Shown in pieces: positions 4,201-40,678 of a stretch of DNA of 43,890 nucleotides. The notes beneath the pieces are model-generated. The model searched no databases. It saw only the letters and a list, made by a program, of their open reading frames with translations, and was not told the DNA's origin. The stretch lies in NCBI GenBank assembly GCA_002256025.1, contig NKIB01014396.1, positions 1 through 43,890 on the forward strand, given 5' to 3'. Positions within the stretch are counted from its first letter, which is position 1, and the number at the start of each line of letters is the position of its first letter. The DNA is from Asterionella formosa. Its lineage: Eukaryota. A program made the position numbers and the translations under genes.

Positions 4201-4269
4201 AAAATGCGAGGGCTCGCAACTGGAGGCCGAAAGGCAGATTTGGTGAAGCGACTGAAGGCTAACCTGTGA
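1257..4269 (+). CDS. Two-exon gene (1257-1697, 1852-4269; ~952 aa): presequence, hydrophobic segment, long coiled coil/acidic repeats, two C-terminal SAP DNA-binding domains
   Basis: A phase-0 intron GTAAGA(1698)...TTGATAG(1851) joins ORF 1257 (...MTEVV) in frame to TPLLFQED... of ORF 1933. N-terminal signal peptide ends ATS-F. SAP motifs: WSTMTVADLKSALVARGIKATGKKAELIALLE and VDGLTMPQLKAELKMRGLATGGRKADLVKRLKANL. Confidence 0.85.
2272..2514 (+). repeat. Intragenic tandem repeat, 81 bp (27 aa) x3
   Basis: RAKSELAARGLLAARLELEAKSKAQKS / KARSESTARSLLVARLELEAKSKAQKS / KARSELTARRLLVARLELEKKSK. GAACTGGAAGCGAAATCCAA occurs at 2320 and 2401. Confidence 0.9.
2734..2966 (+). repeat. Intragenic duplication, 132 bp (44 aa) period x2
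   Basis: GAGGAGGAGCGAATTGCGGTTGCTGCCCGTCTCGCTGTTGAAAAAGCAGAAGCGGAAAGGGAAGA is identical at 2734 and 2866. Confidence 0.9.
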
Positions 4270-18265: not shown

Positions 18266-18457
18266 CGGTTCCGGTATACTGGCAAGGGATTGAGAACCAA
18301 GACTGAATGCAGTCCAGCCTCAAACAATCCTAGTGTGTGAGCGAGTATACTGGTACCTGGTACCAGTCCCGAACCATCGGTAATCATAATCATGTCAAAC
18401 AATGATGTCTCTAATTGTTTTCCTCGTTTGTGTATCATCGTCACCTCCCTCTTTCCA

Positions 18458-19741
18458 ATGACAATTGCACCAGTCCGTCCCATCGTCTTCTGGGCTCTTG
18501 GTCTGTTAAATAATGTATCATACGTGATCATGCTGGCGTCGGCCAAACAGATTTCGGAAGGAGGAACGGCGCTTGTTTTTCTAGCCAACGTGATTCCATC
18601 CCTCTTTGTGAAGCTTTCTGCTCCCTACTGGTTTGATCGGATATCCTATGATACCAGGTTGTCAGTTGCCACTGCATTCATGGGAGCGTCGTTTTTGGTT
18701 GTGGCCCTCTTTCAGGCATCCACGTCCCCATTGGCATTGTATTTCCAGCTACTGGGAGTTGCACTAGCAAGTGCTCAAAGCGGATTGGGGGAAGCATCCT
18801 TACTGGCATTGGCAGGAGCGTGCGACGCATCTAGAGCGAAGCCAGCGTGCCTCTCTTGCTTCTCCTCTGGAACTGGAGTCGCTGGAGTCTTTGGATTTTT
18901 CTATACATTCCTATTGAATGATTTGTTGGGGCTGTCACTGCCGATTACCTTGGTTTTGGCAACATTGCTGGCCGCCATGTATTTCGGTGTCTACAATAGG
19001 TATTTATGGGGATACAAGGGCATGAATTGCAGAGTCATACGCATGTCAAACCTTGGTGAATATATACGAACTACAAGTAGCCCTCTCGAGGATGATGACC
19101 AGCTGATGGATGAGTCGGACCACCCAGAGGGAATTGATGTCTTTCACGACGAATCAATGCCACCATTACTCAAGATTCATGAAATGACTACATTCCAGCG
19201 TCTCATTCTAACATTTTCACTGTATCCATATATGATTCCATTGTTTGTTGTATATGCTGCCGAATATACAATGCAATCTGGGACATGGACTGCCATTGGC
19301 TTTCCCATCACCTCGGAAACAGCCAGAAGTGACTTTTATTTCGCCGCCAATTGGGCCTACCAAGCAGGAGTATTTGTCTCGCGCTCGTCAGGGACACTCT
19401 TTACAGCTCCATTGTGGTTTATCTGGCTCATGCCCGCCCTACAGGTTTTGAATGTGGCCATCTTTTGGGTTGTAGCTGTACATCACGTGTTGTACTCATG
19501 GTGGTTGTTGGTGGGATGCTTTTATGTAGGATTGTTGGGAGGGGCTGTATATGTACACGTATTTACAAGGATATGTGTTGATGTGCCTGCCTATACAGAA
19601 TTTGCCCTGTCTGCAACGAGTGTCGCCGCAGATATTGGCGTTGTGGCAGCGGATGTGATGGGTGTGTTCATTCAGTCATGTCTGTATGCCATTAATGGAT
19701 TGCAAGGGGCTGCTGTCACTTGTCCCATCAAGTTTGGATAA
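18458..19741 (+). CDS. CLN3: Battenin / CLN3-BTN1 family lysosomal-vacuolar MFS-like transporter, copy 1
   Basis: FWALGLLNNVSYVIMLASA, LGEASLLAL, FSSGTGVAG, PLFVVYAAEY, YQAGVFVSRSS, GLLGGAVYV are all CLN3 signature blocks. Multiple TM helices. Start chosen by alignment with the paralogues (ORF extends to 18392). Confidence 0.92.
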   Translation: MTIAPVRPIVFWALGLLNNVSYVIMLASAKQISEGGTALVFLANVIPSLFVKLSAPYWFDRISYDTRLSVATAFMGASFLVVALFQASTSPLALYFQLLGVALASAQSGLGEASLLALAGACDASRAKPACLSCFSSGTGVAGVFGFFYTFLLNDLLGLSLPITLVLATLLAAMYFGVYNRYLWGYKGMNCRVIRMSNLGEYIRTTSSPLEDDDQLMDESDHPEGIDVFHDESMPPLLKIHEMTTFQRLILTFSLYPYMIPLFVVYAAEYTMQSGTWTAIGFPITSETARSDFYFAANWAYQAGVFVSRSSGTLFTAPLWFIWLMPALQVLNVAIFWVVAVHHVLYSWWLLVGCFYVGLLGGAVYVHVFTRICVDVPAYTEFALSATSVAADIGVVAADVMGVFIQSCLYAINGLQGAAVTCPIKFG

Positions 19742-19897
19742 CACAAATGAACACACATGCGTATGGATATTCAGTCTTAACCATGAGAGGAGTCCTCAAC
19801 ACGAACGATGGCTACAACGACAAAATGCTGACAACTATGATAGCCAGAGAATCTAAATGGAGATGAACTACCTAAGTTTCCCCCAAAACTCTTCCAT

Positions 19898-22800
19898 TTA
19901 ATTGCCATCTGTCATGAATAAGAGATCTTTGGCCATGAGGTCGCATTCCCATCCCCGGGTTCTTGAGGCTTCACGAAAGAGTTTCTTGTCCACAAGCAAG
20001 TAAAGTTCTTTGCGTACCCGGGAAAGTGCTACATTGAGACGATTCTTGTTGAGGAAACTAGTTGGCTTGCGGACTAAGCTAAGAATGACAATGTCTGCTT
20101 CTTTTCCTTGGCACTGATCAATGGTCAAAACTGGGAACGTTTCCAGGTTGTTCCTATTGAGTTGGTACTGGATCTCTCGTTGCTGGTTTTTGTACTAGAA
20201 AGCGCACGCAACATTAGTGAGCTCCTGAAAATTCCTAAAAAGGATCAGGTAATCCGTTTTTACTTACCGGAGTCAGAATCATAATGCTTTCTTGTCTGCC
20301 TTTAATGCTCTGATTTACCAATTGAATTACATTTTCAACTTCATTGTCATTCACATACTTTCTTTTCTTGTTTTCCATATAAGGAACATGGATGAAGTGG
20401 AATCCCTGGATGGGAACATTGGCAGCCACTGGGGTATTATACTGGCCGTTATAAATTCTCGCGTTCAGTAATTGTGCGATATCACGTGGGACTCGATATT
20501 GAATGCTTAGTTGAATTTTTGCGTGGTCAATAGTCAATTTACTGACCGAAAGAAGGCTCTTGACGTTCTCCTTCTGATGCTGCCACGAGGATCCCTTTTC
20601 CTTGCTTCCTCTCGTTTTGCTCTGTCCTGAACTGGGGTCATAAGGGGGAAGCTGGTGGACATCGCCAACAAGAACGAGGCTCTTGACTTGAGAAGTGAGA
20701 CGAGAAATTCCTAAGAGTTCATATGCTGGAATACAACCAGCCTCATCGAAAATCACAACAGTTTCCCGATCGTTTGGATCTTCCTTCAGTGAAAGTGCAG
20801 AAAACATATCCAACGGTTCGGGCTCATCATTTTTTTCATTTTTCATGATGAGTTGGTGTGAAGATCCAATTGTAGACATTCGCAATGTAGCTTGATTAAC
20901 AAGGGCGTCTCGGATGAGAGCTTCACGACGCTTGAATTCAAGGCCAGACTCTCTCCAGTCCATCAACAGTTTTTCAGCATCCAAAACACTGAAAAGAGAA
21001 TTTTCAAGGACGATTTTAAATCGTAGCAGAATTTCTTTGCATTTTGCTTCCATCCCTCCTTTGAATTCGTTCCAACTGTGTGGTTTCGCTTGTTTATTTT
21101 CGTTCTTGGTTCTGGTTGGGAAGATGTGTCCAATCAAAGGATTGAGTTCTAAAACTACACTTTCAAAGTGTTCTTCAGTGATTGATAGCAACTGTGGCAT
21201 CAGACGAATCGCATTTTGTACGCAAGCTATGACATCCATCGGCCTACCGAGGGCTTTGCTGTTATTCATGTCAATATCTTGTGCTTGCCTTTCTGCATTC
21301 ATTTTATCGTTTCGATAAACGTCTCCAAAGGAAAGCACCGTCCCCGACAACAATTTGCGTTGCTTCTTGGCAAGTATGTCAAGAGCCATGGCGAAATCTC
21401 TTTGTTTTTCTCGAAGCTGAACGAGTTCAGGATGTTGTCTGTTGAAAGAATTATAGCTCATGGGAATTAGACCATTGCACGCATGCCGAAGCAAGATTCT
21501 TACTGTTTTACTTACTTCATTTTCTCTTCAAGAGTGAACATCTTTGTGTACTTTCCAACACTGGACGCTCCAAATGTCAAGACATTCATCCACAGAGCAA
21601 AGTCAGTAAAACCCATAAATTTGTCAGCATGTAGCAACATACAATTGGATGCAAACTTTTCTGCGATAGCATCAATGGCACCATTTCTCTCGGACAGCAC
21701 GATGATATTGTAATTGGTGCAAGCCAAAAGAGAGCGTGTGAGCTCTGTGATAGTTTTTGTCTTCCCAGTTCCTGGAGGACCGCCAACTTCCACTGCAGAC
21801 TTGAAGTAGAGCGGATGAGCGAGTTTCTTCTGTTGTTCGTTCAAGTCTTCGATTGTGTCAGGAACAGCCGCTTTCAATTCGTCCAGTAAAGGAAGTGATC
21901 TGCCCGCCCCGATAAGGTGCTTGATTGGTTCAGACACAAGCACGGCGTCATCTGTTGAGTGGACATGTGCCATCATGAGGTTAATGCGAAGATTCGCGTT
22001 AAACCCGATGATTTCGAGATCGCCATAGATGGCATTGTCTTCTTCTTTCTCTGCATCACCATCGGAATTAATGCGAAAAAATTTGACAGAAATGTTGTCC
22101 TCCGATGGTTGACCCCCGTCATTTCCTTTACAGGTGAATTTGACGTTTCTGGTTTGATACAAAACACATTTTCCCTTGATGGCAACAACCGCACATTTCA
22201 ATGCATATTTCAGGTTCACCAGAACATCGGGACGTGGCTTTTTGCCCTCTGATGTTGTGTTCTCCTTCTCATCAATTGGCACGCTTACCCATTTGCCTTC
22301 CTCGTCTTCCATTTTCAATGATATCTCGAAAACATTGTTGTCCTTTTTCTTCAAGAGTTTCAAGCAATAGATGTCAGGAACAGAGAATCGAGGCGAGATA
22401 TCATCATCCAGGATTCTCTGTATGCGTGCCGAGGGGTCTCGCAGCAAGCTAAGTCTATCAGCCCGAAGAGCAAAAATAAGACTCTTCTTTGCTTCGCGGA
22501 GGAACGTATTGGTTCGGTTTTCGGCTACTTTGGCATCAATTTCCTGAACAAGAATGCCAGCTTTCTCAAGATGATTTTTAATCAGCTGTTTCAATCCATC
22601 GGGCTCAGCATCTATCCTTTTACGCCACTCATGAACCACACTCTTTTCACGATCTCTTTTAGAAGACTCAAACTTCGCCGTGTCGAACAAGTTTCCGTGA
22701 TTTGCTCGAACATGTGGGTGTGCGTCGCCGCCGCAATCTTGGAGACAAATAGCGCAAAATTTGCAACCACATCGGCAATAAAGCGCATTGCAGCCAGTGT

Positions 22801-23203
22801 AATCGAGAAACGCAGCATTGCACTTGGGACATTTGAGAATCATTTCCTCCATCATTTCATTAAAAATGCGCCTTGCCTTTTCACTCAGAGCACCTAGCTC
22901 GACAGACCTGACCTTTTGAATCTCCAGACGAGTGTTGACGTCAAATTCAACAAAAGACCGCAACTCGTTTTCTACTGCCTTGACTGCGACAGATCCAACA
23001 ACAGCTGCCACCATCTTGACAGCATTTCCTTTCTTATGGCAAGAAGGGCATCTTGCGCTGTTCTCCCCAGTACCGTCTTCAAAAGCAAACTTGATGCACT
23101 CCGCACACATGCTGTACTCACAGGCTAGAGTCATGCAGGAAAAAACCACCTTGCTCTCCTCATCGCAACAGACAACACATGTCAAGCCATCATGGGAAGG
23201 CAT
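19898..23203 (-). CDS. Three-exon gene (23203-21516, 21438-20268, 20194-19898; ~1051 aa): RING + Rcat(RING2)-like zinc fingers fused to a UPF1/SEN1-like SF1 helicase
   Basis: Introns GTAAGT(21515)..CAACAG(21439) and GTAAGT(20267)..TTCTAG(20195) restore the frame and rebuild motif LTP|YKNQ. RING: CVVC...C....C...CAEC...CPSC. Rcat: CPKC..F.DYTGCNALYC.CGCKFCAICL..CGGDAH.H. Helicase: LNEQQ, GPPGTGKT, IFDEAG, LVGDVHQLPP, QYR, TIDQCQGKEAD, RLNVALSR. Confidence 0.9.
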
Positions 23204-23322
23204 ATCTACTTGTTGTATATATTCTTATTTTGCTGCTTCTGTTTGCAGTTGAAGGCAAGCAAAAACTGAGATTCACTGCAATTGCTGCAATCGGATGAGG
23301 TTGCTTGGAAATCACGATATGC

Positions 23323-23539
23323 TAAATTGAAAATTTCAAACTTCTGTTGATTTGGATATTACATTGTTCTGTTGTACCAAGATATAGAAATAATCTAGTA
23401 GATCTACATGTTTCTTCATCGTAAATTGAAATTTTCATTCCTGGTAGTTTGGATACAGCGATGAAGTGGTCACAACTTACATTGTTATGTTGCACCAAGA
23501 TATGGGAGTAATCTTGTAGATTTTCATGTTTCTTCATCG
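23323..23539. repeat. Imperfect tandem duplication (99 bp + 118 bp units) upstream of the helicase gene
   Basis: TAAATTGAAAATTTC...TTACATTGTTCTGTTGTACCAAGATAT...CATGTTTCTTCATCG is repeated as TAAATTGAAATTTTC...TTACATTGTTATGTTGCACCAAGATAT...CATGTTTCTTCATCG. Confidence 0.8.
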
Positions 23540-24045: not shown

Positions 24046-25194
24046 TTACTCCCGTCTTATCTCACCGGTCCTATCAAGGTCCAGAATGCCTAACGGAGGG
24101 TTGATGTGAAGGACTTGTACTTTCTTTTCCTTCCACCCCAAGGCTTCACACTTTACTTCCGTTCTAGTCCATATCAAGTCTGCCTTACTAATATCCAAAA
24201 CTCTCGAAAGTTCCTTTTCAAAGAGTTCACGTCCGTTTTCCCGCTGACCAGTATCATCATCACTGACAATAATCCATGCACCATGCGACAACGCTTCCGC
24301 AATTCGTCCTGCCAATGCTTGTGCCAGTTTTGCTTCATACATCATGGCACCTGCAACAACAATGGGTTGAAGAATCGATAATGCATCATCCTGATGACTA
24401 TCAGTCGTAATTTTTTGTACTTGCCAAGGGATTGGTACAGAACTTGTCAAATCAAAGTTGGTAGTGGACAATGTCCCCCGTGGGACACTACATAACAAGT
24501 CATGTGATTTGGAATTTTCTTTAATGGCACATGTTTCCTTCCAGCCTTGTTTGGTTAACAACAATGCCACTTTAGAAATATCGGTGGCCAATACTGTGGC
24601 TCCACATTGAGCCGCTACTATGGATACCAGTCCATTCCCGCAACCAAGCTCCACAACAGTGCGTCCCGACATTGTGGACGCTGGTAGTTGAGCTAAAAAC
24701 TGTGCAATCGCCAATGAACTTGGCCAGCATTTTCCTCCATATGGATTTATTGTCGTTTCCCACCATGTTTCGTCATGAACTTGAGACACGAATACCGGTA
24801 CATCAAGGGCATAATGATAGCTACTACTACCATGTCGTGGTGACAGTTGTTGTCGTTTCTCATGTCGAACAAGTGAAATAGGTATTCGCCTTGTGCTAGA
24901 TGGCATGAGTTCTACGGAGCAGTATTCCAAGGGTGTTGATTCATGGTCGACTTGTTGTTGTTGCTGCTCGTCATTGGAAAAAGCATCTGTTTTTGCTTTT
25001 CCTCGTCCTCCTTTTTTGCGTTTCTTGGCAGTCAAAACAGAAACATGAGATTTATATGTTGGCGCAAATGATGCTGATGGTGGCAGGTTTAAACTACCGG
25101 TACCGGTACTAATAAAGCAACCGGTCGGCAAACATTGAAATGCGTTTCCAATTACCCCAATGCTCATTATGAATAAAACCAAACGCCGTGACAT
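24046..25194 (-). CDS. Seven-beta-strand protein lysine methyltransferase (METTL21/EFM, Methyltransf_16-like) with N-terminal presequence
   Basis: YGGKCWPSSLAIAQFL; motif I VVELGCGNGLVSIVAA; post-I VLATD; motif II IVVAGAMMYE. Signal peptide MSRRLVLFIMSIGVIGNA-F followed by a Ser/Thr-rich then basic stretch. Confidence 0.85.
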   Translation of the reverse strand: MSRRLVLFIMSIGVIGNAFQCLPTGCFISTGTGSLNLPPSASFAPTYKSHVSVLTAKKRKKGGRGKAKTDAFSNDEQQQQQVDHESTPLEYCSVELMPSSTRRIPISLVRHEKRQQLSPRHGSSSYHYALDVPVFVSQVHDETWWETTINPYGGKCWPSSLAIAQFLAQLPASTMSGRTVVELGCGNGLVSIVAAQCGATVLATDISKVALLLTKQGWKETCAIKENSKSHDLLCSVPRGTLSTTNFDLTSSVPIPWQVQKITTDSHQDDALSILQPIVVAGAMMYEAKLAQALAGRIAEALSHGAWIIVSDDDTGQRENGRELFEKELSRVLDISKADLIWTRTEVKCEALGWKEKKVQVLHINPPLGILDLDRTGEIRRE

Positions 25195-25998
25195 TATAAG
25201 AAACAGGAATTGTAATTATATACCGGTACCGGTAGTATTATTTATTTTATTCAAGACGAGGATGGCGAATCAAACAAAATGCCGATATGATGATGTATGA
25301 TAGTTCCATCTCTAAATGAAGAAAAAACAGTGAAATACCTACTAGTCTCTACCGTGAAAAAAGGAAGATAAATAGTAAGTAGTACACTGTATGATATGTA
25401 TATAGAAAAGTCGCTGATTGATAGTTGCTGAAATGCAATACCGGTAATGATATACCGGTAGCTACTATGTACTGTGTATGTTCCGGTTGAATGTGTACGA
25501 TACGGGTAGGAAAATTTATCCATGATCGCATCACCATCATTTCCCCCAAAACGAAGTGATTGTTCACGACCCTTTCTTGTGTTCAAGCATTTATCAAATC
25601 ACACAACGACATATAAGAAACCTTAAATATGACAATGTGTTCTCTTTTGACTCTTGTTCGTTGACATAACCACGGTGATGCAGAAGTCGAAGAACAAAGC
25701 TGTCAACAATAAGAAACGCCGCAAGGCTTTTTTAGGCGTCCGATATGACACCAATACATTCCCCGTTGGCGTCAAGTGAACAATATGATTCTCTACTGAC
25801 AAGGAATCAGCAACGAGGCCACTTTTCTGGGATTAGAATGAAGAAAAGCGAACCCCTTGAGATTTGCAAACGCAAGTTGTCAATCGTTAAAAGCTGATGG
25901 ATCATCGGCCCATTTTGCTTGACTTTACACAACTTTGCAAACTCGTCCTCATCGACTAACTGTAAAACCATCTTCTTACGATATCATTGAATGATAAA

Positions 25999-27666
25999 AT
26001 GAAGTTACTTGACAATTTTCGTATTCTTGTCCTTGCTTTTGTGTTTGCTGCTGCTAGTGAGGCACGCATTCTGACGAACCCATCACCTTCTGCTTGCGCA
26101 GAAAAACCAGGATACTACATCAGCAAGACCACAGGAACATGCGTGAAGGCATGCGATGCAACTAACCATGTTGCTTTGTTTGGAACTACAATTTCTTGCA
26201 GCGTTAAATCATTTACATCAAAATATCAAGTGACGTACACAACAATTCCACAATCCATTGTAGGACTTACTCAGTTAACCCTTTTGGATCTGAGTGGAGA
26301 ATTCAGACGCACAATTCCTAGTGAAGTAGGAAAACTCAAAGCCCTGAGGCATTTGGACTTGAGCTACACTAGCCTCTCAGGAATGATTCCGAGTGAATTG
26401 GGAAAACTCACCCTTCTAACAAATTTGGCCTTTTCCAATTGTGGTTTAACTGGTACTATTCCTCATGAGTTGGGTAAGCTCCAACAATTGACTTCCATTG
26501 ATTTGTCATACAACTCTATCAGAGGAACCATTCCTAGTGAATTAAGCATGCTGACAAAGATGCAATCAGTCACTTTGAATGACAATGCTCTCAGAGGATC
26601 CATTCCTCCTAAATTGAGTAAAGCATTGACTTCTCTGGCATTTCATTCAAATCATCTATCTGGAACGATTCCTTCAGAATTGGGCCAACTCAGCCTTCTA
26701 ACCTACCTTGACCTTGTAGGGAATAATCTTGGTGGAAAAATTCCTTCTGAATTGGGGAAACTCACTCGTTTGATAACCATGGGTTTGTCAAGAAATTTGG
26801 ACCTGTCAGGACCAATTCCTAGTACACTGGGAAAACTGAGCCTTCTAAACTTTCTGGATCTTTCCTTCAACAATCTCAATGGAGCGATTCCTAGTACATT
26901 TGGAAATCTCAATATATTTGGTTTGTATCTTACATCCAACAATCTTGATGGAACCATTCCTCATGCATTGACCAGAGCTAGTCACCTGCAATACATGTTT
27001 TTGAGCTCCAACAATCTCAATGGAGCCATTCCTAGTGTATTGGGCCAGATGAAGCAATTGTTAGTGCTGGATTTGAGTTTCAACAATTTCAATGGAACTA
27101 TTCCACCCTCATTAGGCCAACTCAGCAATCTGAATGACTTGGAATTGGGTTCCAACAAACTCAAAGGAAAAATTCCTCCCTCTCTGGGCCAATTGAAGGA
27201 TATGTATCGGTTGGATTTGAGTTCAAACCAACTCAATGGACCTATTCCTGCTTCATTAGGACAACTCAGTCAGATGGGTTATATGGATTTGAGTTCCAAC
27301 AAACTCAATGGAACTATTCCTATCATATTGGGCAAGATGCAGTCATTGTACCAGTTGTATTTGAGTTCCAACAAGCTCAATGGAACCATTCCGCCTGTAT
27401 TGGGTCAACTTAGCAGTATGTGGAAATTGGATTTGAGTTCCAACAAGCTCAAAGGAACTATTCCAAGTGCATTGGGCAAGTTGAAAGGGTTGCAATATTT
27501 GTTTCTTGACACTAATGATTTGAAAGGCTCCATGCCAACTGCCATTTGCAGTTTGAAAGGAAGTGATCCTGAGATGAGTGGTCTCAGTACCCTCACTGCT
27601 GATTGTAAAGGGCCCACTCCTGAAGTGACATGCACTTGTTGCACATCTTGCTTTATGGATCCTTGA
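25999..27666 (+). CDS. Secreted leucine-rich-repeat protein (~18 plant-type 24-aa LRRs, diatom-type Cys C-cap)
   Basis: Signal peptide MKLLDNFRILVLAFVFAAASEA. Repeats LxxLxLSxNxLxGxIPxxLGx. C-cap LTADC....EVTCTCCTSC. No TM or kinase domain. Confidence 0.9.
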   Translation: MKLLDNFRILVLAFVFAAASEARILTNPSPSACAEKPGYYISKTTGTCVKACDATNHVALFGTTISCSVKSFTSKYQVTYTTIPQSIVGLTQLTLLDLSGEFRRTIPSEVGKLKALRHLDLSYTSLSGMIPSELGKLTLLTNLAFSNCGLTGTIPHELGKLQQLTSIDLSYNSIRGTIPSELSMLTKMQSVTLNDNALRGSIPPKLSKALTSLAFHSNHLSGTIPSELGQLSLLTYLDLVGNNLGGKIPSELGKLTRLITMGLSRNLDLSGPIPSTLGKLSLLNFLDLSFNNLNGAIPSTFGNLNIFGLYLTSNNLDGTIPHALTRASHLQYMFLSSNNLNGAIPSVLGQMKQLLVLDLSFNNFNGTIPPSLGQLSNLNDLELGSNKLKGKIPPSLGQLKDMYRLDLSSNQLNGPIPASLGQLSQMGYMDLSSNKLNGTIPIILGKMQSLYQLYLSSNKLNGTIPPVLGQLSSMWKLDLSSNKLKGTIPSALGKLKGLQYLFLDTNDLKGSMPTAICSLKGSDPEMSGLSTLTADCKGPTPEVTCTCCTSCFMDP

Positions 27667-28844
27667 ATGTGGATATCGCTAGTAAGGTCAAGTCAAGCCA
27701 TTGGTCATACTTCTTGTCCTCAAAAGCGACATCTTCTTGCATCTTCATCACCATTACACTTTTTCATGTTGTATTTCCTAAAACTTGTATGGTACCCTCC
27801 AAGCATCAGCCATCAATAGCGGAGCATACTTGAAATTTCGATTTGTTTATTTGTAGTTCTAGTTGTAGTTGTCGCAGTAGTTTGCTACCCTCATCTGCAA
27901 GCATATTTTATAAATATCTAGAAATTTCACGAGAAGTTATCACTAGTAGAACATAATAATTTAGTTTTTTCTGATCTTTCGAAAGATATGACAATGACTA
28001 GCTTTACAGTCAATACCTGGCATGACTCATGGGATGTAGAGAATATGCACAACAGGGAGGTGGTGTGTATTGCTGTGCATCCACAAATCCACAAAATCCT
28101 CCAAAGAGCAAATAACAGATTCATATTGCATTCACATGCCAGCCCAAACTATAGTAGACATGAATTTTTCTAACTGTTTATCATGCCAGTGTTTTGCATT
28201 TTAAAAGCGCATTGTACAGCATTTTTTGGTTGAGAAATATTAAACTAGGATCTAATCTCAGAAGCATGCTTGCTGGCTCCATTGTACAAGCAGACAATAT
28301 GTGCTTTTGGGATTTGAATTCCTTTCAGTAACAAAGTCAAGGACCACAATGTGCGAAAAAAGTATAAGTAACAACAACTGATCCAATAACCTCAACGGGA
28401 TAGAAAATGTAAGAAACCATAACTGACCATCACTATTGTACACTATGAAGTATATGAAGCGAGCTAACCCCAGCCATTATTTAGAGATTCTTCGTATAAC
28501 ATCATATCGTCACTATGATGATCCTGATTTTGATTCTGAATATGTGCGTATGTTTATACATACGCGGTCGGAAACTGACGGAAGAACGTACTTGGAAGGT
28601 CCGGTAAAACGCGGGTTGTACTTAGAAAACAATTAAGCTAAATATCTCAATTACCGGACCTGCACTTGGAGCACAGTATATTGCCAAGTACCAGGTACCT
28701 GGTACCAGGTACCAGGTGCCAGTAGTAAGTACAGATTCCGGTCCTTATCTGAATGCTTTTCCATTTTCTAGCACAGTAAAAACAGAAATACAATTGAGAA
28801 TTTGGTAAAGGAATGTGTGCGACTTACTAGCATCAATTCTCACC

Positions 28845-30119
28845 ATGGCAGGTCCAGTCCACCCGCTCGTCTTTTGGACCCTGGGCTTACTAAACACTTC
28901 CTCCTACGCCATAATGTTAGCCTCAGCGAAGAATATCTCTGAAGGAGGTACTGCGTTGGTCTTTATTGCCAATATTCTCCCGGCGCTGGCCATTAAACTT
29001 TCCGCTCCCTATTGGTTCGATAAAGTTTCGTACGACATGAGACTTACAACGGGCTCCATCCTGATGGCAAGTGCGTTTTGCACGGTGGCATTCTTCCAGG
29101 GGTCTCAGTCAGAGAATGCCCTGTACTTTCAGCTTGTCGGTGTGGCATTTGCGAGTGCCCAGACTGGCATGGGCGAAGCCAGTCTCCTGGCACTGGCAGG
29201 GGCGTCGGATGCGTCCCGGGCGAAGCCACAGTGCTTAACGTGCTTTGCATCTGGGACGGGCTTGGCGGGAGTCTTTGGGTTCTTGTTTAAATATATGCTC
29301 AATTCGGTGTTGGGTTTGAGTATGAGAATGACTTTGATTTGCGCGACTTCCCTGGCTGTCATGTATTTCAGTATCTATCAGGAATTCTTATGGGGACGGA
29401 AAAAGGCCAGAAGTGAACTCACGGCATATAATTCTGCCAAAGGTTTGAACGAGCATGAACCATTGGAATCGTTCTCGCCAGCCGAGATCGCTCCGTTTTG
29501 TGACGATGGCGACGTGAAGGCGTCGAAGCCAAAGATAATGAGAATTAGAGATATGAACACGTACCTACGGCTCCAACTTACACTGTCACTTTATCCATAT
29601 ATGATTCCCCTCTTTGTTGTCTACGCCGCTGAATACAGCATGCAAGCAGGCACATGGACTGCCATTGGGTTTCCAATTACCGACCAGAAAGCTAGGAACG
29701 ATTTCTACTTTGCAGCCAATTGGACCTACTATGCTGGTGTCTTTGTATCCAAAAGTTCCGGTACTCTCTTTACTGCACCAATGTGGCTACTATGGCTCAT
29801 GTCGGGTCTACAATGTGTCAATGTCGGATTCTTTTGGACCGTTGCAGCACATCATATATTTTACAATTGGTGGTTATTAATTGGGTGCTTTTTCACTGGA
29901 TTGTTGGGTGGTGGCGTCTATGTCCATGGATTCACAAGAATATGCATAGACTTACCCAAGGAGCATACCGAATTTGCTCTCTCCGCCACGAGTGTAGCAG
30001 AATGTTTTGGTATATTTGTGGCAGATGTTTGCGGACTCTTTTTGCAATCGTGTTTATATGCTATTAATGGAATATCGGGAGCAGTAGTCCCATGTCCTTT
30101 TGTGGATACTGTAACGTAA
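28845..30119 (+). CDS. CLN3: Battenin / CLN3 family transporter, copy 2
   Basis: Same CLN3 blocks (FWTLGLLNTSSYAIMLASA, GEASLLAL, GTGLAG, YAAEY, YYAGVFVSKSS, GLLGGGVYV). Intact single-exon ORF; ATG at 28845. Confidence 0.92.
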   Translation: MAGPVHPLVFWTLGLLNTSSYAIMLASAKNISEGGTALVFIANILPALAIKLSAPYWFDKVSYDMRLTTGSILMASAFCTVAFFQGSQSENALYFQLVGVAFASAQTGMGEASLLALAGASDASRAKPQCLTCFASGTGLAGVFGFLFKYMLNSVLGLSMRMTLICATSLAVMYFSIYQEFLWGRKKARSELTAYNSAKGLNEHEPLESFSPAEIAPFCDDGDVKASKPKIMRIRDMNTYLRLQLTLSLYPYMIPLFVVYAAEYSMQAGTWTAIGFPITDQKARNDFYFAANWTYYAGVFVSKSSGTLFTAPMWLLWLMSGLQCVNVGFFWTVAAHHIFYNWWLLIGCFFTGLLGGGVYVHGFTRICIDLPKEHTEFALSATSVAECFGIFVADVCGLFLQSCLYAINGISGAVVPCPFVDTVT

Positions 30120-31342
30120 ATGATGAACTATTTTGTTTTGGTCATTGCATAATGTCTATCTTTACATTTATTCTTATGCTTCTATGACACTGGGTAGAAG
30201 TGTCATTCTGAGACAAAAGGGTTTACCCTCTCTAAAAGTAACCACTGTCCGCCCTATCCATGTTAGCAGCTTGGTTTAACTTGCTAGAGTGCGTATAGAT
30301 ATTGTACACCCGAATGCAATACTCTGCTACTATGTTGTTGAACTACATATGTTAATATTCTCTGAATTCATCATGTACTTATTAGCTACTTATAGGTACT
30401 ATTCGCATTCGATTTAGTCTATATTTCCAAGAACATGGACAATGATGCAGGATAGTCCTAGTCTACTAGATGGAATCACTAGGTGGTATAATCGCAATGT
30501 GTAAATATATATGTATAATAATTTTGTCGTCTACGGTACTGTAGTACAGTGGGAACTATGCATTTACTGTACTATAATTTTTGAAATTATAGCTTAACGG
30601 TAAAACTACATTACCGGGAGATAACATCCAAGTGGTGGGGATAAACTACATGTAAATGATATACAGAATCAGTCTACCCGATCATGAGATTGTAATCGGC
30701 CCAGGAGTGCAAATATTTACCACCCCTCCTCCATTGCTAGCTAAGCAAAGTATTCTCCATGCATGCTGAAATAGTATGCATGTAACACCACCATTCGTGC
30801 ATGCGATGAACAATGATCCTGGTGATTTGGCGTTGCATGCATGTGTTGATCCTCTCGCATCAACGGATCGATTCTTCGTGATAAGTTATAACACCCGGTA
30901 CCAGTACTCCTGTACTCCTGGTACCAGGTCCTGGTGTGACGATTCAAATTTTAACACAGTTGTTTCGCACGGCTTATAGAATATGCAATGCGACGTTCAC
31001 AAAAGAATTATTTCATATTTATATTAAAATATGAATATAACTGATGTATAAATGATTAAAAACTGGATATAACTGATGCTTGAATGGTGAGCATTTCTGT
31101 ACTGTATATATAAATTGTCAGGCAGCGCTAGGGGACAAAATAGGAACCCTACCAGTATTCTACGTAGAGTACGTCCTGGTACCAAGACCCGCTGCTAAGA
31201 AAGGAGACGAGAAAACAAATACCGGGGGGTACCTATTTTGCACTAGTGTTGCTATGCTGCCTTTCAAGTCCATTGCATTTAGTGTCTACACGCATGCATG
31301 TCGTATGGGTCTTTATCAATCGAACCACCATCCCGCATCACC

Positions 31343-32617
31343 ATGGTGGCTCCAGTGAACCCGCTCGTCTTCTGGATCCTCGGCTTGCTAAACAACGCAG
31401 CGTATGTCATCATGCTGGCATCAGCGAAGAGCATTTCCGAAGGAGGCACAGCGCTGGTCTTCATTGCAAACATTATTCCCGCCGTCACCATTAAGCTATC
31501 CGCTCCCTACTGGTTCGACAAGGTTTCGTACGATACGAGACTAACGATGGGTTCCATCCTGATGGCGAGCTCCTTTCTTACCGTGGCCTTCTTCCAAGGG
31601 TCCCATTCAAAGTACTCCTTGTACTTTGAGCTCCTCGGAGTTTCGCTCGCCAGTGCGCAGACGGGCATGGGCGAAGCTAGTCTCCTGGCGCTGGCAGGAG
31701 CGTCTGATGCGCCGAGACCGAAACCGGAATGCCTCACGTGCTTTGCCTCTGGGACTGGGCTGGCAGGAATCTTTGGTTTCTTTTTTAAATATATGCTCAA
31801 TTCAGTCTTGGGTCTGAGTATGAGATTGACATTGGTTTGCGCCACATCGCTTTCAGTCATGTACTTTAGCGTCTATCGCAAGTACCTATGGGGTAGGAAG
31901 AAGGCCAGGAGCCTTCTCACTGAACATCCCACTGGTGATGCCGATGCATGCCTGCATGGATATCATCAACCTGCGACGATTGTTCCATTAACGGACGCAC
32001 CCCTTCCTGACGAAGCCTTTGAGGACGAAACTCAATTATCACCAGTCCCAAAGGTCCATGAGATGGATGCGTCTCAACGCTTCAAGCTGACGTTGTCACT
32101 ATACCCCTACATTATCCCTTTATTCCTAGTTTTCGCTGCCGAGTACACCATGCAAGCAGGGACGTGGACGGCAATCGGTTTCCCCATCACTGACGTGAAA
32201 GCCAGAAATGATTTCTACTTTGCCGCCAATTGGACGTATTATGCTGGGGTCTTTGTGTCCAGAAGTTCCGGTACTCTCTTTACCGCTCCAAGGTGGCTGC
32301 TATGGCTCATGCCTATCTTACAATGCATCAATGTGGCATTCTTTTGGATCGTGGCGGCACACCATGTATTTTACAATTGGTGGTTATTAATTGGATGCTT
32401 TTATACTGGGTTACTTGGTGGGGCTGTCTATGTGCATGGGTTCACCAGAATCTGTATAGACTTGCCGAAGGAGCATACGGAGTTTGCCCTGTCGGCCACA
32501 AGTGTGGGGGAGTGCTTTGGGATCCTCGCTGCTGACGTTTGTGGACTCTTTTTGCAATCTTGTCTCTATGCTATAAATGGATTATCAGGAGCAGCAGTAG
32601 TGTGTCCTGTATACTAA
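31343..32617 (+). CDS. CLN3: Battenin / CLN3 family transporter, copy 3
   Basis: Same CLN3 blocks; very similar to copy 2 (long identical nucleotide runs). ATG at 31343 (alternative 31298). Ends CPVY*. Confidence 0.92.
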   Translation: MVAPVNPLVFWILGLLNNAAYVIMLASAKSISEGGTALVFIANIIPAVTIKLSAPYWFDKVSYDTRLTMGSILMASSFLTVAFFQGSHSKYSLYFELLGVSLASAQTGMGEASLLALAGASDAPRPKPECLTCFASGTGLAGIFGFFFKYMLNSVLGLSMRLTLVCATSLSVMYFSVYRKYLWGRKKARSLLTEHPTGDADACLHGYHQPATIVPLTDAPLPDEAFEDETQLSPVPKVHEMDASQRFKLTLSLYPYIIPLFLVFAAEYTMQAGTWTAIGFPITDVKARNDFYFAANWTYYAGVFVSRSSGTLFTAPRWLLWLMPILQCINVAFFWIVAAHHVFYNWWLLIGCFYTGLLGGAVYVHGFTRICIDLPKEHTEFALSATSVGECFGILAADVCGLFLQSCLYAINGLSGAAVVCPVY

Positions 32618-36567: not shown

Positions 36568-36718
36568 ATGATTAAAATTTCGTCGACCAAGTGAACTTTA
36601 ATTCCCTTGGGTATTTGGTCGATGCGGTGGCAATGCTCTAATAATAGCGAATTCCCGATCATTTCCTTTGTTTTTGCTTCCATTCCTTCACTCGAATAGA
36701 TCACGAGATCATTACAAA

Positions 36719-38311
36719 ATGAAATGCAACCCTAGTATCACCAAGATGCAAAGATCAGTGCTGAATAATAAACAACGATTCTTCTGGTGCATCGGGGTGA
36801 TTTGTGTGTTCGAAATGATTCACATACCAGGATTTGTTATCTTTTCCGACCCCAGCACTACAGCACATCCTACTGAACAAATCAATGAAGCGGTGGAGAA
36901 ACCTGAGCAGCAGCAGCTCTTTGTTGCTGTTCAGGACGATGATTTGTTATTCGGCAAGAGCTGCTTGCGTTCCAAAAATAGCATTACTATGCAGTGGGAC
37001 TGCCGAGATTGTGGACTAAAAGGGCTTTACAACGCCCGAACTGACTGTCCTCCAATGGAAGCAAATGGTGTTTGTCACCCTATTCGGAATTCCACTTGGG
37101 ATGACCCACCTCGCCAAGCATCCACTTTCTCTGCCACTTCTAGTACCACCTCTCATCACCATCTTATCACGCATTATGGAATGCGTGAAGAATTTCAACA
37201 GATTCAATGTGATTCACTACATGATTGTTTCAATGTGACCAAGTGCAAACCAACAAGCACTACCAAAACGTCTATGAAACTCTTTGCTCACGGGGACAAC
37301 ACAAGTCTAGCCAATGAATTGGTCACATTAGCAGTGCAGAACTATCCTACAATGTGGGAACGCACTTTGGATGCATCCGAGGCTTGTCTCTTGGTTGTTA
37401 CATGTGACTCATATTCCAATGTGTCACAATTTTTGGATCATTTTTACCATGATGGTAAGAATCACTTTATATGGGATTCTCCTGAGTGTTTTGGTTCACA
37501 TGGAGATCGGCCCTTTAATACAGCGGTTGATTTCAAATATGCCGCTTTGTCAACAAGTACATTGACGGATGCCAACATTCGACGTGGGTATGATATTCCC
37601 GTAACTCGCGTCAGAGGGTTTACTATAGGCGAATTTTGTACTTCGGTCTTGCCACAAACTTTTAATGAGGATAACAGTAATTATGAGCCTAGAAAGTACT
37701 TACTTTCATTCAAGGGAAATATATTCAATTGGGAACAAGTATGGTGGCAGCATCGATGGTTGGCAGCAGAATATTGGAACTCAACAAATGATGATGAATC
37801 AGATGTGATTGTAGATGTCAAATGTGGAGGGTTAGAAGATTATAGGCTTCCTCATTCCAGCTTTAATCAACTTCTACTGCAATCCACCTTTGGATTTTCA
37901 CCTGGTGGAGGATCAGTGGGTAGCTATCGATTTGCTGAAATACTTGGGTTGGGTGGGATCCCTGTGGTAGTGTCTGATTTTATTCCACCCATGTGGCCAG
38001 AACTGGATTGGTCCGGATGCCTAGTAAGAGTGAGTGAAACCAGAATTGTAGATTTACCAGACAGGTTAAGGAACATGACAAAAAAGGAGATAAGTGATAG
38101 ACAACAAAGATGCAAGATCTTATTTCAGCTTACAATTGGATGGAAGCAAGTTAATACATCATGGTGGGAAATTGATTCTGGAGAACAAGCATTCTTGACA
38201 TCCATGAGGATTTGGTATGTCAGAATGCAGGAGTACTTTTTGAAACAACAACAACAATTCGCATTTGAAAATGAATTGATAGCAGAGTTTATACGGTTTA
38301 AGAAAGAGTGA
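36719..38311 (+). CDS. Exostosin-family (GT47) glycosyltransferase, type II membrane protein
   Basis: N-terminal TM FFWCIGVICVFEMIHIPGFVIF. CFNVTKC; EACLLV; GKNHFIWD; IRRGYDIP; RKYLLSFKG; LLQSTFGFSPGG..VGSYRFAEILGLGGIPVVVSD...P...LDWS are exostosin motifs. Confidence 0.9.
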   Translation: MKCNPSITKMQRSVLNNKQRFFWCIGVICVFEMIHIPGFVIFSDPSTTAHPTEQINEAVEKPEQQQLFVAVQDDDLLFGKSCLRSKNSITMQWDCRDCGLKGLYNARTDCPPMEANGVCHPIRNSTWDDPPRQASTFSATSSTTSHHHLITHYGMREEFQQIQCDSLHDCFNVTKCKPTSTTKTSMKLFAHGDNTSLANELVTLAVQNYPTMWERTLDASEACLLVVTCDSYSNVSQFLDHFYHDGKNHFIWDSPECFGSHGDRPFNTAVDFKYAALSTSTLTDANIRRGYDIPVTRVRGFTIGEFCTSVLPQTFNEDNSNYEPRKYLLSFKGNIFNWEQVWWQHRWLAAEYWNSTNDDESDVIVDVKCGGLEDYRLPHSSFNQLLLQSTFGFSPGGGSVGSYRFAEILGLGGIPVVVSDFIPPMWPELDWSGCLVRVSETRIVDLPDRLRNMTKKEISDRQQRCKILFQLTIGWKQVNTSWWEIDSGEQAFLTSMRIWYVRMQEYFLKQQQQFAFENELIAEFIRFKKE

Positions 38312-38873: not shown

Positions 38874-40175
38874 TCAGAGGGCAATGGAGCTCATCAATTG
38901 ACTCAAATCCGACAGTTCATCACGTTTAGAAGCCCCTCTGGTTCGCATGACCGATGTGGATGTTTCTTTCCTTCTCGATTTCTTTGGTGTCCTGGTCATG
39001 TCGATTCGTCGAAAGACAAATTCCATCCCGCCCTTTTCCAAAGCATCCATGGTTGCGTGAATATTCATCACGGCAGATCGAGCCAGTCGTGGGTGCTGGT
39101 CTTCATAACTCCAGTAACTTCTCAAACTCTCACGAGCTGATGACAGACCCCCTAAACAAGAGTCGGTCGATTCATGTTTCACCATGCTGTTTGTAATCTC
39201 ATGCATACACTGACAAATGACCTGAATGTTGTAGCCCCCTTCCAAGGCCACCACAAGTGGTATATTAAGCTGTAAGAGTGAGGCTGTCATGGACCCGTAA
39301 AATTCAGGGGTCAAGTGGCAGTCCCCAATCAAATCATTCTTCGCAGCATCCAGTCCGCATGAAACAATAATCAATTCCGGGGTGTGTGCACCAATCATTG
39401 GTAGCACAATCTCTGACATGGCTGCCGCATACTCTGCATTGCCCATAGACCCCTTGGTCCAGGCAATGTTGATATTTTTTCCGTCATTTGTTTCCTGTGG
39501 CGAACCAGTTCCAGGAAAAAAATACTGTTTGTTCAATCCAAAACGATGCATGGAGATATACATAATGTTGTCACATCCCCACACCAGCTCTTGTGTTCCA
39601 TTGCCATGGTGTATGTCCCAATCCAAAATAACTGTTCGTCTTCCCGCCCACTTGGCTGCCACAGCTACAGAATTGAATATACAAAAGCCCATTTCATGAG
39701 CTTGACATGCGTGATGACCAGGTGGTCGAACCAAGGCGATGGAGGTTGAGTTTGTATTCGTCATGACCGCGTGACAAGCAGCAATGACACCCCCACACGC
39801 AAGCTTTGCGGCATTAAACGAGTGTTCATTGTAGTACATATCGTCGTCTAGATTTGACTTATCTTCAAGTTCCGCTGCAGTCAGGGCGGCCGTGGCTTGC
39901 ATCGATTCGTAGTGATACGCCGAATGGACACTGACGATCTGTTCTTTCGTTGCCATGGGGCAGTCGATTCGAAGCAAGGATGATTCTCCGAATGCTTGCA
40001 TTAGGTGAGAGTAGATGGAGGTGAGCCGTTCAGGTCGCTCAAAGACGTAAGTAGCAAGGCTAGATTTGATGTCAGCGCGACATGATGGTGGAGAATCTTC
40101 ATTCTCGTTGTTTTCTTGGTACGAAACGGGTCTATGAAGTGCCATGCGCTCATCATAGACGAGATGAACTAACAT
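38874..40175 (-). CDS. Class II zinc-dependent histone deacetylase (HDA1/HDAC6-like, single domain)
   Basis: ERPERL; RPPGHHA; GFCIFNSVAVAA; LDWDIHHGNGTQ; SMHR..FFPGTG; NINIAW; SCGLDAA; LEGGY. Confidence 0.93.
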   Translation of the reverse strand: MLVHLVYDERMALHRPVSYQENNENEDSPPSCRADIKSSLATYVFERPERLTSIYSHLMQAFGESSLLRIDCPMATKEQIVSVHSAYHYESMQATAALTAAELEDKSNLDDDMYYNEHSFNAAKLACGGVIAACHAVMTNTNSTSIALVRPPGHHACQAHEMGFCIFNSVAVAAKWAGRRTVILDWDIHHGNGTQELVWGCDNIMYISMHRFGLNKQYFFPGTGSPQETNDGKNINIAWTKGSMGNAEYAAAMSEIVLPMIGAHTPELIIVSCGLDAAKNDLIGDCHLTPEFYGSMTASLLQLNIPLVVALEGGYNIQVICQCMHEITNSMVKHESTDSCLGGLSSARESLRSYWSYEDQHPRLARSAVMNIHATMDALEKGGMEFVFRRIDMTRTPKKSRRKETSTSVMRTRGASKRDELSDLSQLMSSIAL

Positions 40176-40678
40176 CTCGGTAAGCTGCTGTATTCTAAAA
40201 TGTCAAATCGAGTTCGATGGAGGGGTGTGTCCTTGTTCGCCAGTGTGTGCTTGTCTCCCTGTCGTCAACGCAGAATGTGATGGACAACAACAAAATGATG
40301 AACAAGGAACGAGAAAAGCCCTACATAAGTCAGTTTGAATCCTCCCTTTTCATATGTATCTTCATTCACGAATATATGTCGAATGAACCGAAACATTTAG
40401 CGGGTATATAGATATACCGATGAATTTTTTACTGTCTTGATTATGTATTTATACCGGAACATAGACACTAGGAGATAGCTTCCTCAAAGTCCTCGTTTGC
40501 TTGGTTTTTTGGTTCTCTGTCTATTGACAACATACCACACCGTAATTGGTAAAATTAAACCCAAGTTGTATTTTCCTGTAGGCCTCTCCTATGTGTCTAC
40601 TTGGTCATTTTAATACTGGCACGGTATTGATCTGAAAATACAAGTGGAAGGACCGTGTTGCAACAGTATGTAGGTATG

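Follow-up and report, generated by a model that had tools for sequence, protein, structure and literature searches.

Transthiolating ubiquitin ligases (E3s) coupled to a nucleoside triphosphatase (NTPase), namely ZNFX1 and RNF213, are recent additions to the known effectors of animal cell-autonomous immunity. ZNFX1 unites a UPF1-like helicase of superfamily 1 (SF1), a RING-like E2 binder and a cysteine-dependent RZ finger, and its ligase activity is stimulated by nucleotide-dependent binding of RNA, to which Walker A and RNA-binding mutants are unresponsive (bioRxiv 10.1101/2025.09.05.674436). In the RBR ligases the catalytic cysteine, C688 in RNF216, is essential, and the other residues of the catalytic triad are incompletely conserved, as in HOIL-1, where a tryptophan occupies the position of the triad histidine and a distant C-terminal histidine takes over its role (PMC9834252). 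Here we describe a gene of the diatom Asterionella formosa, lying at 19898..23203 on the minus strand of contig NKIB01014396.1 (assembly GCA_002256025.1; positions 1 to 43,890, the whole stretch that was analysed, are hereafter the window), which almost certainly fuses an RBR-type RING1, a helix and an Rcat finger to a UPF1-like helicase. A first-pass annotation of this DNA, made from the letters alone, had proposed this combination and considered it undescribed; in the full-text literature, with subscription-only papers outside our coverage, we likewise found no description of a RING1-Rcat/SF1 helicase architecture and no paper naming the relevant Pfam family, PF26200.

The coding sequence runs from an ATG at 23203-23201, preceded seven codons 5' by an in-frame stop, to a TAA at 19900-19898, in exact agreement with the limits given by the first-pass annotation. 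It is distributed over three consecutive stop-free open reading frames (ORFs) of the minus strand (21512-23224, 20235-21527 and 19898-20194), which had been predicted to splice into one gene of about 1051 residues, and removal of two introns leaves 3156 nucleotides, or 1051 codons followed by the TAA. When four RNA runs were aligned to positions 19600-23500, a contig skipping exactly intron 1 was found in two of the four (X2 and X5, both lake-water metatranscriptomes) and one skipping exactly intron 2 in a single run (X5, a polyA library), both skips showing CT..AC ends on the plus strand. These joint-spanning contigs are 59-60 nucleotides long with 29-30 letters on either side, slightly below our 31-letter rule for accepting joints. 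The ends of further contigs coincide with exon borders, one (X5 record 12) matching exon 2 from end to end and two (records 9 and 16) starting at 21516, the exon 1 border with intron 1. Run X1 was excluded as support, its one unspliced contig being identical to the window and possibly representing source material or DNA. Across the second junction the Pfam AAA_12 profile continues without interruption, exon 2 ending on position 117 and exon 3 starting on position 118, and the spliced protein aligns with four full-length orthologues, at 39.2-42.9% identity, with no gaps at either junction. The locus is transcribed in nature, since 11 of the 12 database rows that contain it, from 9 studies, are recorded as RNA. 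It is thus one expressed gene, spliced as predicted. The same metatranscriptomes hold spliced and intron-retaining contigs side by side (X2 record 2; X5 records 11 and 14), reflecting either intron retention or carry-over of DNA. Upstream of the ATG, the contigs of X2 and X5 bear a 21-nucleotide insertion behind 23358 and several substitutions (23255-23349) and extend beyond 23500 toward the upstream gene; these 5' variants point to strain polymorphism.

The N-terminal RING of the earlier annotation is borne out by eight cysteines spaced C-x2-C-x10-C-x4-C-x4-C-x2-C-x15-C-x2-C and by a modelled fold that together indicate a cross-brace, two-zinc RING with predicted E2-binding capability. Each of the eight is either fully conserved or present in 90% or more of the rows of a 33-sequence alignment, and this near-invariance of the zinc-ligand cysteines among the relatives suggests that the finger pattern is more than chance. 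Sequence matches in the PDB are weak (phmmer, RINGs of RNF4 and RING1B, E 0.04-0.1 on residues 4-61), and in fold the domain matches FANCL (4ccg_Y, Z 6.0 over residues 5-69), Slx1 (Z 5.3) and RING1 of parkin (Z 3.2-3.7). The residue preceding the second RING cysteine, a hydrophobic position with a role in E2 contact, is V11 here and isoleucine in most orthologues, and the residue following the last cysteine, the usual linchpin position, varies among H, K, R and G in the orthologues. The adjoining segment, residues 56-124, contains a single histidine and no cysteine at all, which means that there is no IBR (BRcat); the two helices of the model stand in its place, as the first reading of a zinc-free helical linker implied, and the final 20 residues of this linker align to the helix preceding RING2 of RNF216.

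The second finger shows the pattern C-x2-C-x9-C-x4-C-x-C-x-C-x2-C-x2-C-x3-C-x4-H-x-H over residues 125-164 and includes the motif GCNAL. The best match of residues 1-200 among PDB sequences is RING2 of RNF216 (7m4n, phmmer E 5.8e-5, residues 113-162), followed by that of ARIH1 (E 0.025). The two fingers share an identical C-R-C-G-x3-C-x2-C spacing, and Cys138 is aligned with the residue that is alanine in the C688A mutant chains of RNF216. In addition, PF26200 is present in the precomputed annotation of a database protein (P0156) that is the exon-1 protein of the window, and the ESM Atlas names this family Rcat_RNF216. Sequence, PF26200 and fold hence concur on an RING2/Rcat finger with a cysteine at the catalytic position. 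In a phmmer alignment of 126 rows, Cys138 is retained in 117 (four rows have a gap) and the eight ligand positions of the finger are cysteine or histidine in 117-122; since homology to RNF216 makes Cys138 a residue that does not bind metal, its conservation is the strongest argument for catalysis that the sequence offers. As to the replacement of the triad histidine by alanine, on which the first-pass annotation had remarked, the alanine itself stands, but it does not set the protein apart from its nearest relative: the position is never histidine among the printed categories of the 126-row alignment, and RNF216 carries arginine there. Downstream, His162 and His164 (117 of 126 rows each) and His169 (97 of 126) are conserved; two of them are probably zinc ligands and one could act as a base. 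I122 and L133 align with I672 and I683 of RNF216 (numbering derived from C688), which are among four residues whose mutation disrupts discharge of the ubiquitin-loaded E2 (E2~Ub) (PMC9834252).

An AlphaFold 2 (AF2) model of residues 1-230, built from 33 sequences, has a mean predicted local distance difference test score (pLDDT) of 92.8, with 203 of the 230 residues at 90 or above, and comprises a small RING-like fold, helices 61-69 and 71-121, a two-hairpin finger, and helices 162-168, 175-196 and 202-214. RNF216 occupies the top four rows of a Foldseek search of the PDB with this model (E 0.01-0.03, probability at least 0.98), the other leading rows being mostly parkin, HHARI, HOIP and RINGs. 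It also ranks first and second (Z 7.3 and 7.0) in a search, independent of Foldseek, of 48,161 representative chains, among which no chain reaches Z 8. The top match pairs residues 102-220 of the model with residues 652-772 of RNF216 (100 residues, root-mean-square deviation (rmsd) 3.7, 20-22% identity), and the Z score for this fold is 7.3-7.6 across structural alignments. The match takes in the helical extension behind the finger, an element that proteins of other architecture conserve along with it. Taken by itself the lead in Z is small, and the relation to RNF216 is argued from sequence, precomputed Pfam annotation and fold, which all agree.

The rest of the protein is an SF1 helicase, whose UPF1/SEN1 motifs had rightly been called intact: the Q-like motif (residue 454) and motifs I (475), Ia (504), II (794), III (821), IV (QYR, 876), V (977) and VI (1005) are all present, which together with AAA_11 and AAA_12 places it in the UPF1-like SF1B group. 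AAA_11 is matched by residues 454-519 in exon 1 (E 2.8e-8) with its C-terminal part in exon 2, and AAA_12 has its first half in exon 2 and its second in exon 3. For the full length we modelled the closest orthologue, P0002 (1058 residues), from a 27-row alignment that included the three exon translations of the window, obtaining a pLDDT of 87.6 and a predicted template modelling score (pTM) of 0.81. Foldseek returned 147 PDB matches to this model at E <=0.001, with SETX (senataxin) best (1.9e-23), followed by Aquarius, Sen1, IGHMBP2, UPF1, DNA2, ZNFX1 and coronavirus nsp13, and a second structural aligner placed UPF1 (2xzo_A) at Z 22.9 with an rmsd of 4.7 over 473 residues. The alignments of UPF1, IGHMBP2, Sen1, DNA2 and nsp13 begin at model residues 224-231 and that of the SF1A helicase UvrD only at 439, and model residues 224-440 form one long helix, seven strands and three short helices. 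The region of about 250 residues that the first-pass annotation had left unassigned is therefore most likely the helicase's own stalk and 1B barrel preceding domain 1A, a reading taken from the alignment ranges and secondary structure of the orthologue model, not from a domain-only search, and transferred to the window protein through alignment. The P0002 model further shows a long helical insertion of about 190 residues within domain 1A. The closest solved relative of P0002 by sequence is SETX (E 3.3e-12), with ZNFX1 at E 2.1e-5, and since similarity to all solved relatives is low, no helicase subfamily is assigned. Nor are the hallmarks of the ZNFX1 family found: no zf-NF-X1 or zf-RZ match was obtained in the three exon translations (E <=1) or in four orthologues (E <=0.1), the zf-RZ model having been run without a positive control; the protein terminates directly after motif VI, where ZNFX1 proteins have their C-terminal RZ finger, and its helicase is not nearest to ZNFX1.

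Four full-length relatives of 1045-1137 residues with the same domain order were found among 8000 scored candidates (proteins of 985-2810 residues), and all four keep the GCNAL motif. They include a protein of Chaetoceros tenuissimus ("hypothetical protein", and "RING-type domain-containing" in UniRef), one of Nitzschia inconspicua ("AAA domain containing protein") and a EukProt entry with the prefix CCRYP, which we take to be Cyclotella cryptica. The family thus spans centric and pennate diatoms and is publicly annotated without a functional name. An exhaustive search without a profile yielded 1569 proteins at E <=1e-3, of which 439 were at or below 1e-10 and 57 at or below 1e-30, many of the top matches being fragments of about 550 residues that end where exon 1 ends. 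When the window protein's Rcat region was the query, a word-index search yielded orthologue fragments only, 11 out of 54 candidates; when that of a kinase was used, it yielded 13 out of 160. In the ESM Atlas, residues 1-220 reached scores of 0.83-0.87, which being below 0.9 are leads only, to haptophyte hypothetical proteins, RBR/IBR clusters and a Nucleocytoviricota cluster, and P0004 led to generic UPF1-like helicase clusters. A scan of IMG/VR with the module alignment produced 22 pattern matches, a single one of which passed tblastn, weakly (18 residues, E 2e-4).

The finger itself extends well beyond this family. Residues ~100-215, that is the helix, the finger and the following helices, match many proteins of different architecture with E values of 1e-15 to 1e-18. 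Among 26 of these scanned with Pfam, 11 have a protein-kinase domain (10 above cut-off) and nine have AAA_11, AAA_12 or both; the rest comprise a 4703-residue protein with AAA_5, one with Bles03 only, one with IBR_1 only and three without matches. Four long helicases (P0126, P0133, P0137 and P0150) bear the finger at their extreme C-terminus, at residues 1729-1818 of 1844 in P0126, 1397-1565 of 1575 in P0137 and 2145-2355 of 2368 in P0150, the match in the last spanning query residues 9-212 and so the whole cassette of RING1, helix and Rcat. In the PDB comparison, which covered P0126, P0137 and P0150 (P0133 has the same layout), ZNFX1 (9q9z) was the best match of each (E 4.1e-61, 6.8e-98 and 3.1e-29, as against 1e-28, 7e-35 and 1e-17 for the next family). 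The AAA_5 protein, P0139, is a homologue of RNF213 (E 6e-64) with the finger at 3850-3929. None of these five proteins gave a zf-RZ match at E <=1, again with a model run without a positive control, so that they seemingly carry the Rcat finger in place of RZ, in what would be a swap of catalytic fingers. On sequence grounds, the Rcat finger is a cassette that has been shuffled, with or without a RING, into kinases and homologues of ZNFX1 and RNF213, and this recurrence, newly noted here, links an RBR-type finger to the NTPase-coupled ligases.

Several further occurrences were noted. The helix-Rcat-helix unit lies C-terminal to the kinase domain in at least 10 proteins (P0099, P0101, P0104, P0114, P0128, P0134, P0135, P0142, P0146 and P0147), and a Bles03 domain is present in one of these kinases, P0114, and in P0107. 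The finger occurs twice in tandem in P0091 (135-215 and 320-423) and P0143 (176-286 and 332-418), the second copy being degenerate in both, with the catalytic-position cysteine changed to serine in P0091 and several ligand residues lost in P0143. In the viral structure library BFVD there were three matches at E <=0.001, all to giant-virus proteins and two of them named RNF216 and triad3; these RNF216/TRIAD3-like proteins (A0A7M3UPC4 of Pyramimonas orientalis virus, A0A3G5AC41 of Hyperionvirus and A0A3G4ZV30 of Dasosvirus) score E 4e-6 to 8e-4. Rcat_RNF216 is also recorded in 40% of the members of the Nucleocytoviricota cluster of the ESM Atlas.

The best overall explanation of these data, which we favour by a modest degree, is a transthiolating E3 coupled to the binding of nucleic acid and ATP. 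RING1 would dock E2~Ub, and the end of the linker helix (residues ~100-121) together with the first strands of Rcat would hold the donor ubiquitin, which would pass to a thioester on Cys138 and from there to the substrate. The helical extension would connect the finger to the helicase by way of its stalk and 1B barrel; the helicase is presumed to be an ATPase that binds RNA or DNA in single-stranded form, and the binding of nucleic acid or nucleotide by the helicase would serve as a switch or an address for the ligase. Only a short helical extension separates the cassette from the helicase, and the pTM of the orthologue model suggests a defined arrangement; the proposed involvement of nucleic acid and nucleotide is drawn from analogy with ZNFX1. 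We regard cysteine-dependent ligase activity, for which the conserved residues argue, as somewhat better than an even bet, the coupling of the ligase to nucleic acid as plausible at rather less than even chances, and an antiviral or anti-transposon role, as first suggested for the locus, as speculative and on balance improbable.

A number of observations weigh against a coupled ligase of this kind. Both fingers fall below the curated Pfam cut-offs in local searches (zf-RING_4 at E 0.016 for RING1 and IBR_1 at E 0.002-0.03 for Rcat), the spacings between ligands 3-4 and 4-5 of RING1, of four residues each, are unusual, and the triad histidine is missing, alanine being present in 116 of 126 rows. 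In the Foldseek search of the PDB none of the 174 matches of the cassette reached E <=0.001, the best standing at 0.01, and in the independent fold search the third chain, an unrelated helical transporter, scored Z 6.3, only about 1 below RNF216. The IBR, which belongs to the defining features of RBR ligases and helps to form their allosteric site (PMC9834252), is absent, and lacking that site the activity would have to be set by another input or the ligase be constitutively active. When the alignment rows with room upstream were counted by phmmer, excluding proteins with an N-terminus shorter than that of the query (a regular-expression count was dropped because it missed the true orthologue P0002), 14 of 51 aligned from RING1 and 37 had no detectable copy of it; the finger is thus often found without a RING1 in cis, which may mean that such a RING1 is not needed or that the finger has another role. 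The E2-to-E3 thioester and the ATP-dependent 5'-3' translocation, on RNA or on DNA, are predictions.

Some of these points lend themselves to a different reading, in which the two zinc fingers have no ligase function and act as an adaptor or a regulator, binding to a partner protein or to nucleic acid and gating the helicase. The missing catalytic histidine and IBR, the low Pfam scores and the non-canonical RING spacing all suit such a domain, and so does the placement of the fingers immediately before the stalk and 1B barrel, where UPF1 has its regulator, the Cys/His-rich CH domain that binds UPF2. A purely structural finger would hardly explain why Cys138, a non-ligand by homology to RNF216, is still cysteine in 117 of 126 rows; the nearest relative in sequence and in fold is, moreover, a proven catalytic domain, and the finger is present in homologues of two proven transthiolating E3s, so that we hold an adaptor to be unlikely. 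Less probable again is an ordinary allosteric RING ligase, in which RING1 alone would activate E2~Ub and the Rcat-like finger would only bind ubiquitin or substrate. The full set of RING1 ligands and the hydrophobic V11, isoleucine in most orthologues, would serve this purpose, and in ZNFX1 the allosteric and transthiolating routes can coexist (10.1101/2025.09.05.674436); the same conservation of Cys138 speaks against it, however, as does the drift among H, K, R and G at the linchpin position, taken as described for ZNFX1 in that source. That the RING/Rcat part and the helicase are separate genes, or their fusion an assembly artefact, has a negligible chance of being true: RING, Rcat and Walker A lie within the single uninterrupted ORF of exon 1, the four full-length orthologues repeat the same order, spliced joints were observed, the unspliced contigs are colinear with the window, and we found no point in support of a split.

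Irrespective of its chemistry, the protein could also work in a housekeeping context such as RNA quality control, transcription termination, or DNA replication and repair, with no sensing of viral or transposon nucleic acid, and to this we give rather less than even odds. It accords with the existence of colinear full-length orthologues in pennate as well as centric diatoms, with a steady signal in lake metatranscriptomes, both polyA and total RNA, that have no known infection context, with the housekeeping nature of the nearest helicases by sequence (SETX/Sen1, UPF1 and Aquarius) and with unrelated neighbouring genes (CLN3, a methyltransferase). Two considerations, neither of them decisive, point the other way, namely that an identity of 39.2-42.9% between orthologues is low for a core housekeeping helicase and that the cassette is housed elsewhere in, among others, homologues of two immune E3s, ZNFX1 and RNF213.

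A bolder proposal, to which we attach only a slender chance, is that the Rcat finger and the helices on either side of it form a mobile transthiolation cassette, replacing RZ in the ZNFX1 and RNF213 homologues of microbial eukaryotes and wired to kinases in other proteins. The diatom protein would then be an IBR-less "mini-ZNFX1" in which the helicase takes the place of ubiquitin as the allosteric activator and which marks or entraps foreign RNA, such as that of diatom RNA viruses or transposon transcripts. Within this proposal the nucleic acid itself might be ubiquitylated, ZNFX1 being reported to ubiquitylate RNA. The idea also draws on RNF216, which ubiquitylates the sugar maltose in vitro (PMC9834252). 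More generally, the diatom fusion and the presence of the same finger in ZNFX1 and RNF213 homologues suggest that the switching of a cysteine-dependent ligase by a helicase or ATPase is an old and repeatedly assembled eukaryotic design, that an RBR-type module can do without the IBR, and that the catalytic fingers RZ and Rcat are interchangeable. At 1051 residues the protein would be a tractable experimental model for the gating of ubiquitin transfer by nucleic-acid binding, and it is a candidate factor in diatom-virus interactions, which influence bloom dynamics.

Table 1. Exons, introns, domains and helicase motifs of the fusion gene, in window coordinates.
Feature	Position	Strand	Residues	Remarks
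Exon 1	21516..23203	-	1-562 and two bases of codon 563	ORF, ATG; RNA contigs begin at 21516
Intron 1	21439..21515	-		77 nucleotides, GTAAGT..CAG; spliced joint in X2 and X5, 30 letters on each side
Exon 2	20268..21438	-	563-953	X5 record 12 is exactly 20268-21438; Pfam AAA_11, AAA_12
Intron 2	20195..20267	-		73 nucleotides, GTAAGT..TAG; joint in X5, shorter side 29 letters; AAA_12 profile 117 to 118 across it
Exon 3	19898..20194	-	954-1051 and TAA	ORF; AAA_12 E 2e-14
RING1	23039..23179	-	9-55	Eight cysteines: C9, C12, C23, C28, C33, C36, C52, C55
Helical linker	22841..23023	-	61-121	Helices 61-69 and 71-121; AF2 block with pLDDT >90
Rcat/RING2 finger, RNF216 type	22694..22840	-	122-170	Cys138 (22790-22792) at the catalytic position
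Helical extension	22562..22681	-	175-214	AF2 helices 175-196 and 202-214; within the structural match to RNF216 652-772
Probable stalk helix and 1B beta-barrel	21869..22531	-	~225-445	From the orthologue model, transferred by alignment
Motif I, Walker A	21758..21781	-	475-482	GPPGTGKT
Motif II	20736..20747	-	794-797	DEAG
Motif III	20643..20666	-	821-828	GDVHQLPP
Motif V	20099..20125	-	977-985	
Motif VI	20012..20041	-	1005-1014	

The other annotated genes of the window have no evident functional link to the helicase gene. Directly upstream of it lies a Methyltransf_16 lysine-methyltransferase-like gene (24046-25215, minus strand). Three paralogous CLN3 (battenin) genes, each with a near full-length match to Pfam CLN3 (E 1.9e-73 to 3.5e-77), are found within 14 kb on the plus strand (18341-19741, 28809-30119 and 31283-32617). 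Further genes encode a SAP/HeH-domain protein (1852-4269, plus), a leucine-rich-repeat protein (25966-27666, plus), an exostosin GT47-like protein (36602-38311, plus) and a histone deacetylase (38874-40202, minus).

Set beside the known systems, residues 102-220 have their closest relative in sequence and fold in the human RBR ligase RNF216/TRIAD3 (PDB: 7m4m, 7m4n, 7m4o and 8eb0), with which they share the helix before RING2, the spacing of the finger, the helix after it and the active-site cysteine, both lacking a histidine two residues further on. RNF216 differs in having the full RING1-IBR-RING2 arrangement, with an allosteric site for ubiquitin where RING1 meets the IBR (PMC9834252), and no helicase, whereas the diatom protein, at 20-22% identity, has one helix instead of the IBR and is fused to an SF1 helicase. 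Because the IBR is absent it is not an RBR member as that family is defined; its sequence clearly derives from the family, and it probably works like it. An RBR-type module joined to a helicase in one protein is also known from the "Helicase" (Plant I) subfamily of RBR proteins, but there a complete RBR supradomain accompanies a DEAD/DEAH helicase of superfamily 2 (SF2) (PMC2904391), in keeping with what the first-pass annotation had stated, and the diatom protein combines an IBR-less module with a UPF1-like SF1B helicase. With UPF1, SETX-Sen1, IGHMBP2, Aquarius and DNA2 it has motifs I-VI, AAA_11/AAA_12 and the stalk and 1B barrel in common (Z 18-23), yet these lack the RBR-type RING1-Rcat cassette.

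RNF213 is a giant NTPase-coupled transthiolating E3 with an RZ finger, and its homologue P0139 has the same Rcat finger; the core of RNF213 is, however, a dynein-like AAA assembly and not an SF1 helicase, and beyond the finger there is no overall homology to the window protein. ZNFX1, rightly invoked at the outset as an SF1 helicase coupled to ubiquitin ligation, in that its E3 activity is RNA-stimulated, shares with the diatom protein a UPF1-like core, a RING-like domain and a finger with a positioned cysteine in a single polypeptide, the ligase activity of the latter being a prediction. In ZNFX1 the RZ finger and a one-zinc "Z-RING" are both C-terminal to the helicase (bioRxiv 10.1101/2025.09.05.674436), in contrast to the N-terminal, RBR-type RING1 and Rcat of the diatom protein. 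As the latter has no NFX1 or RZ fingers and a helicase that is not closest to ZNFX1, the likeness between the two would be one of function and not of family membership.

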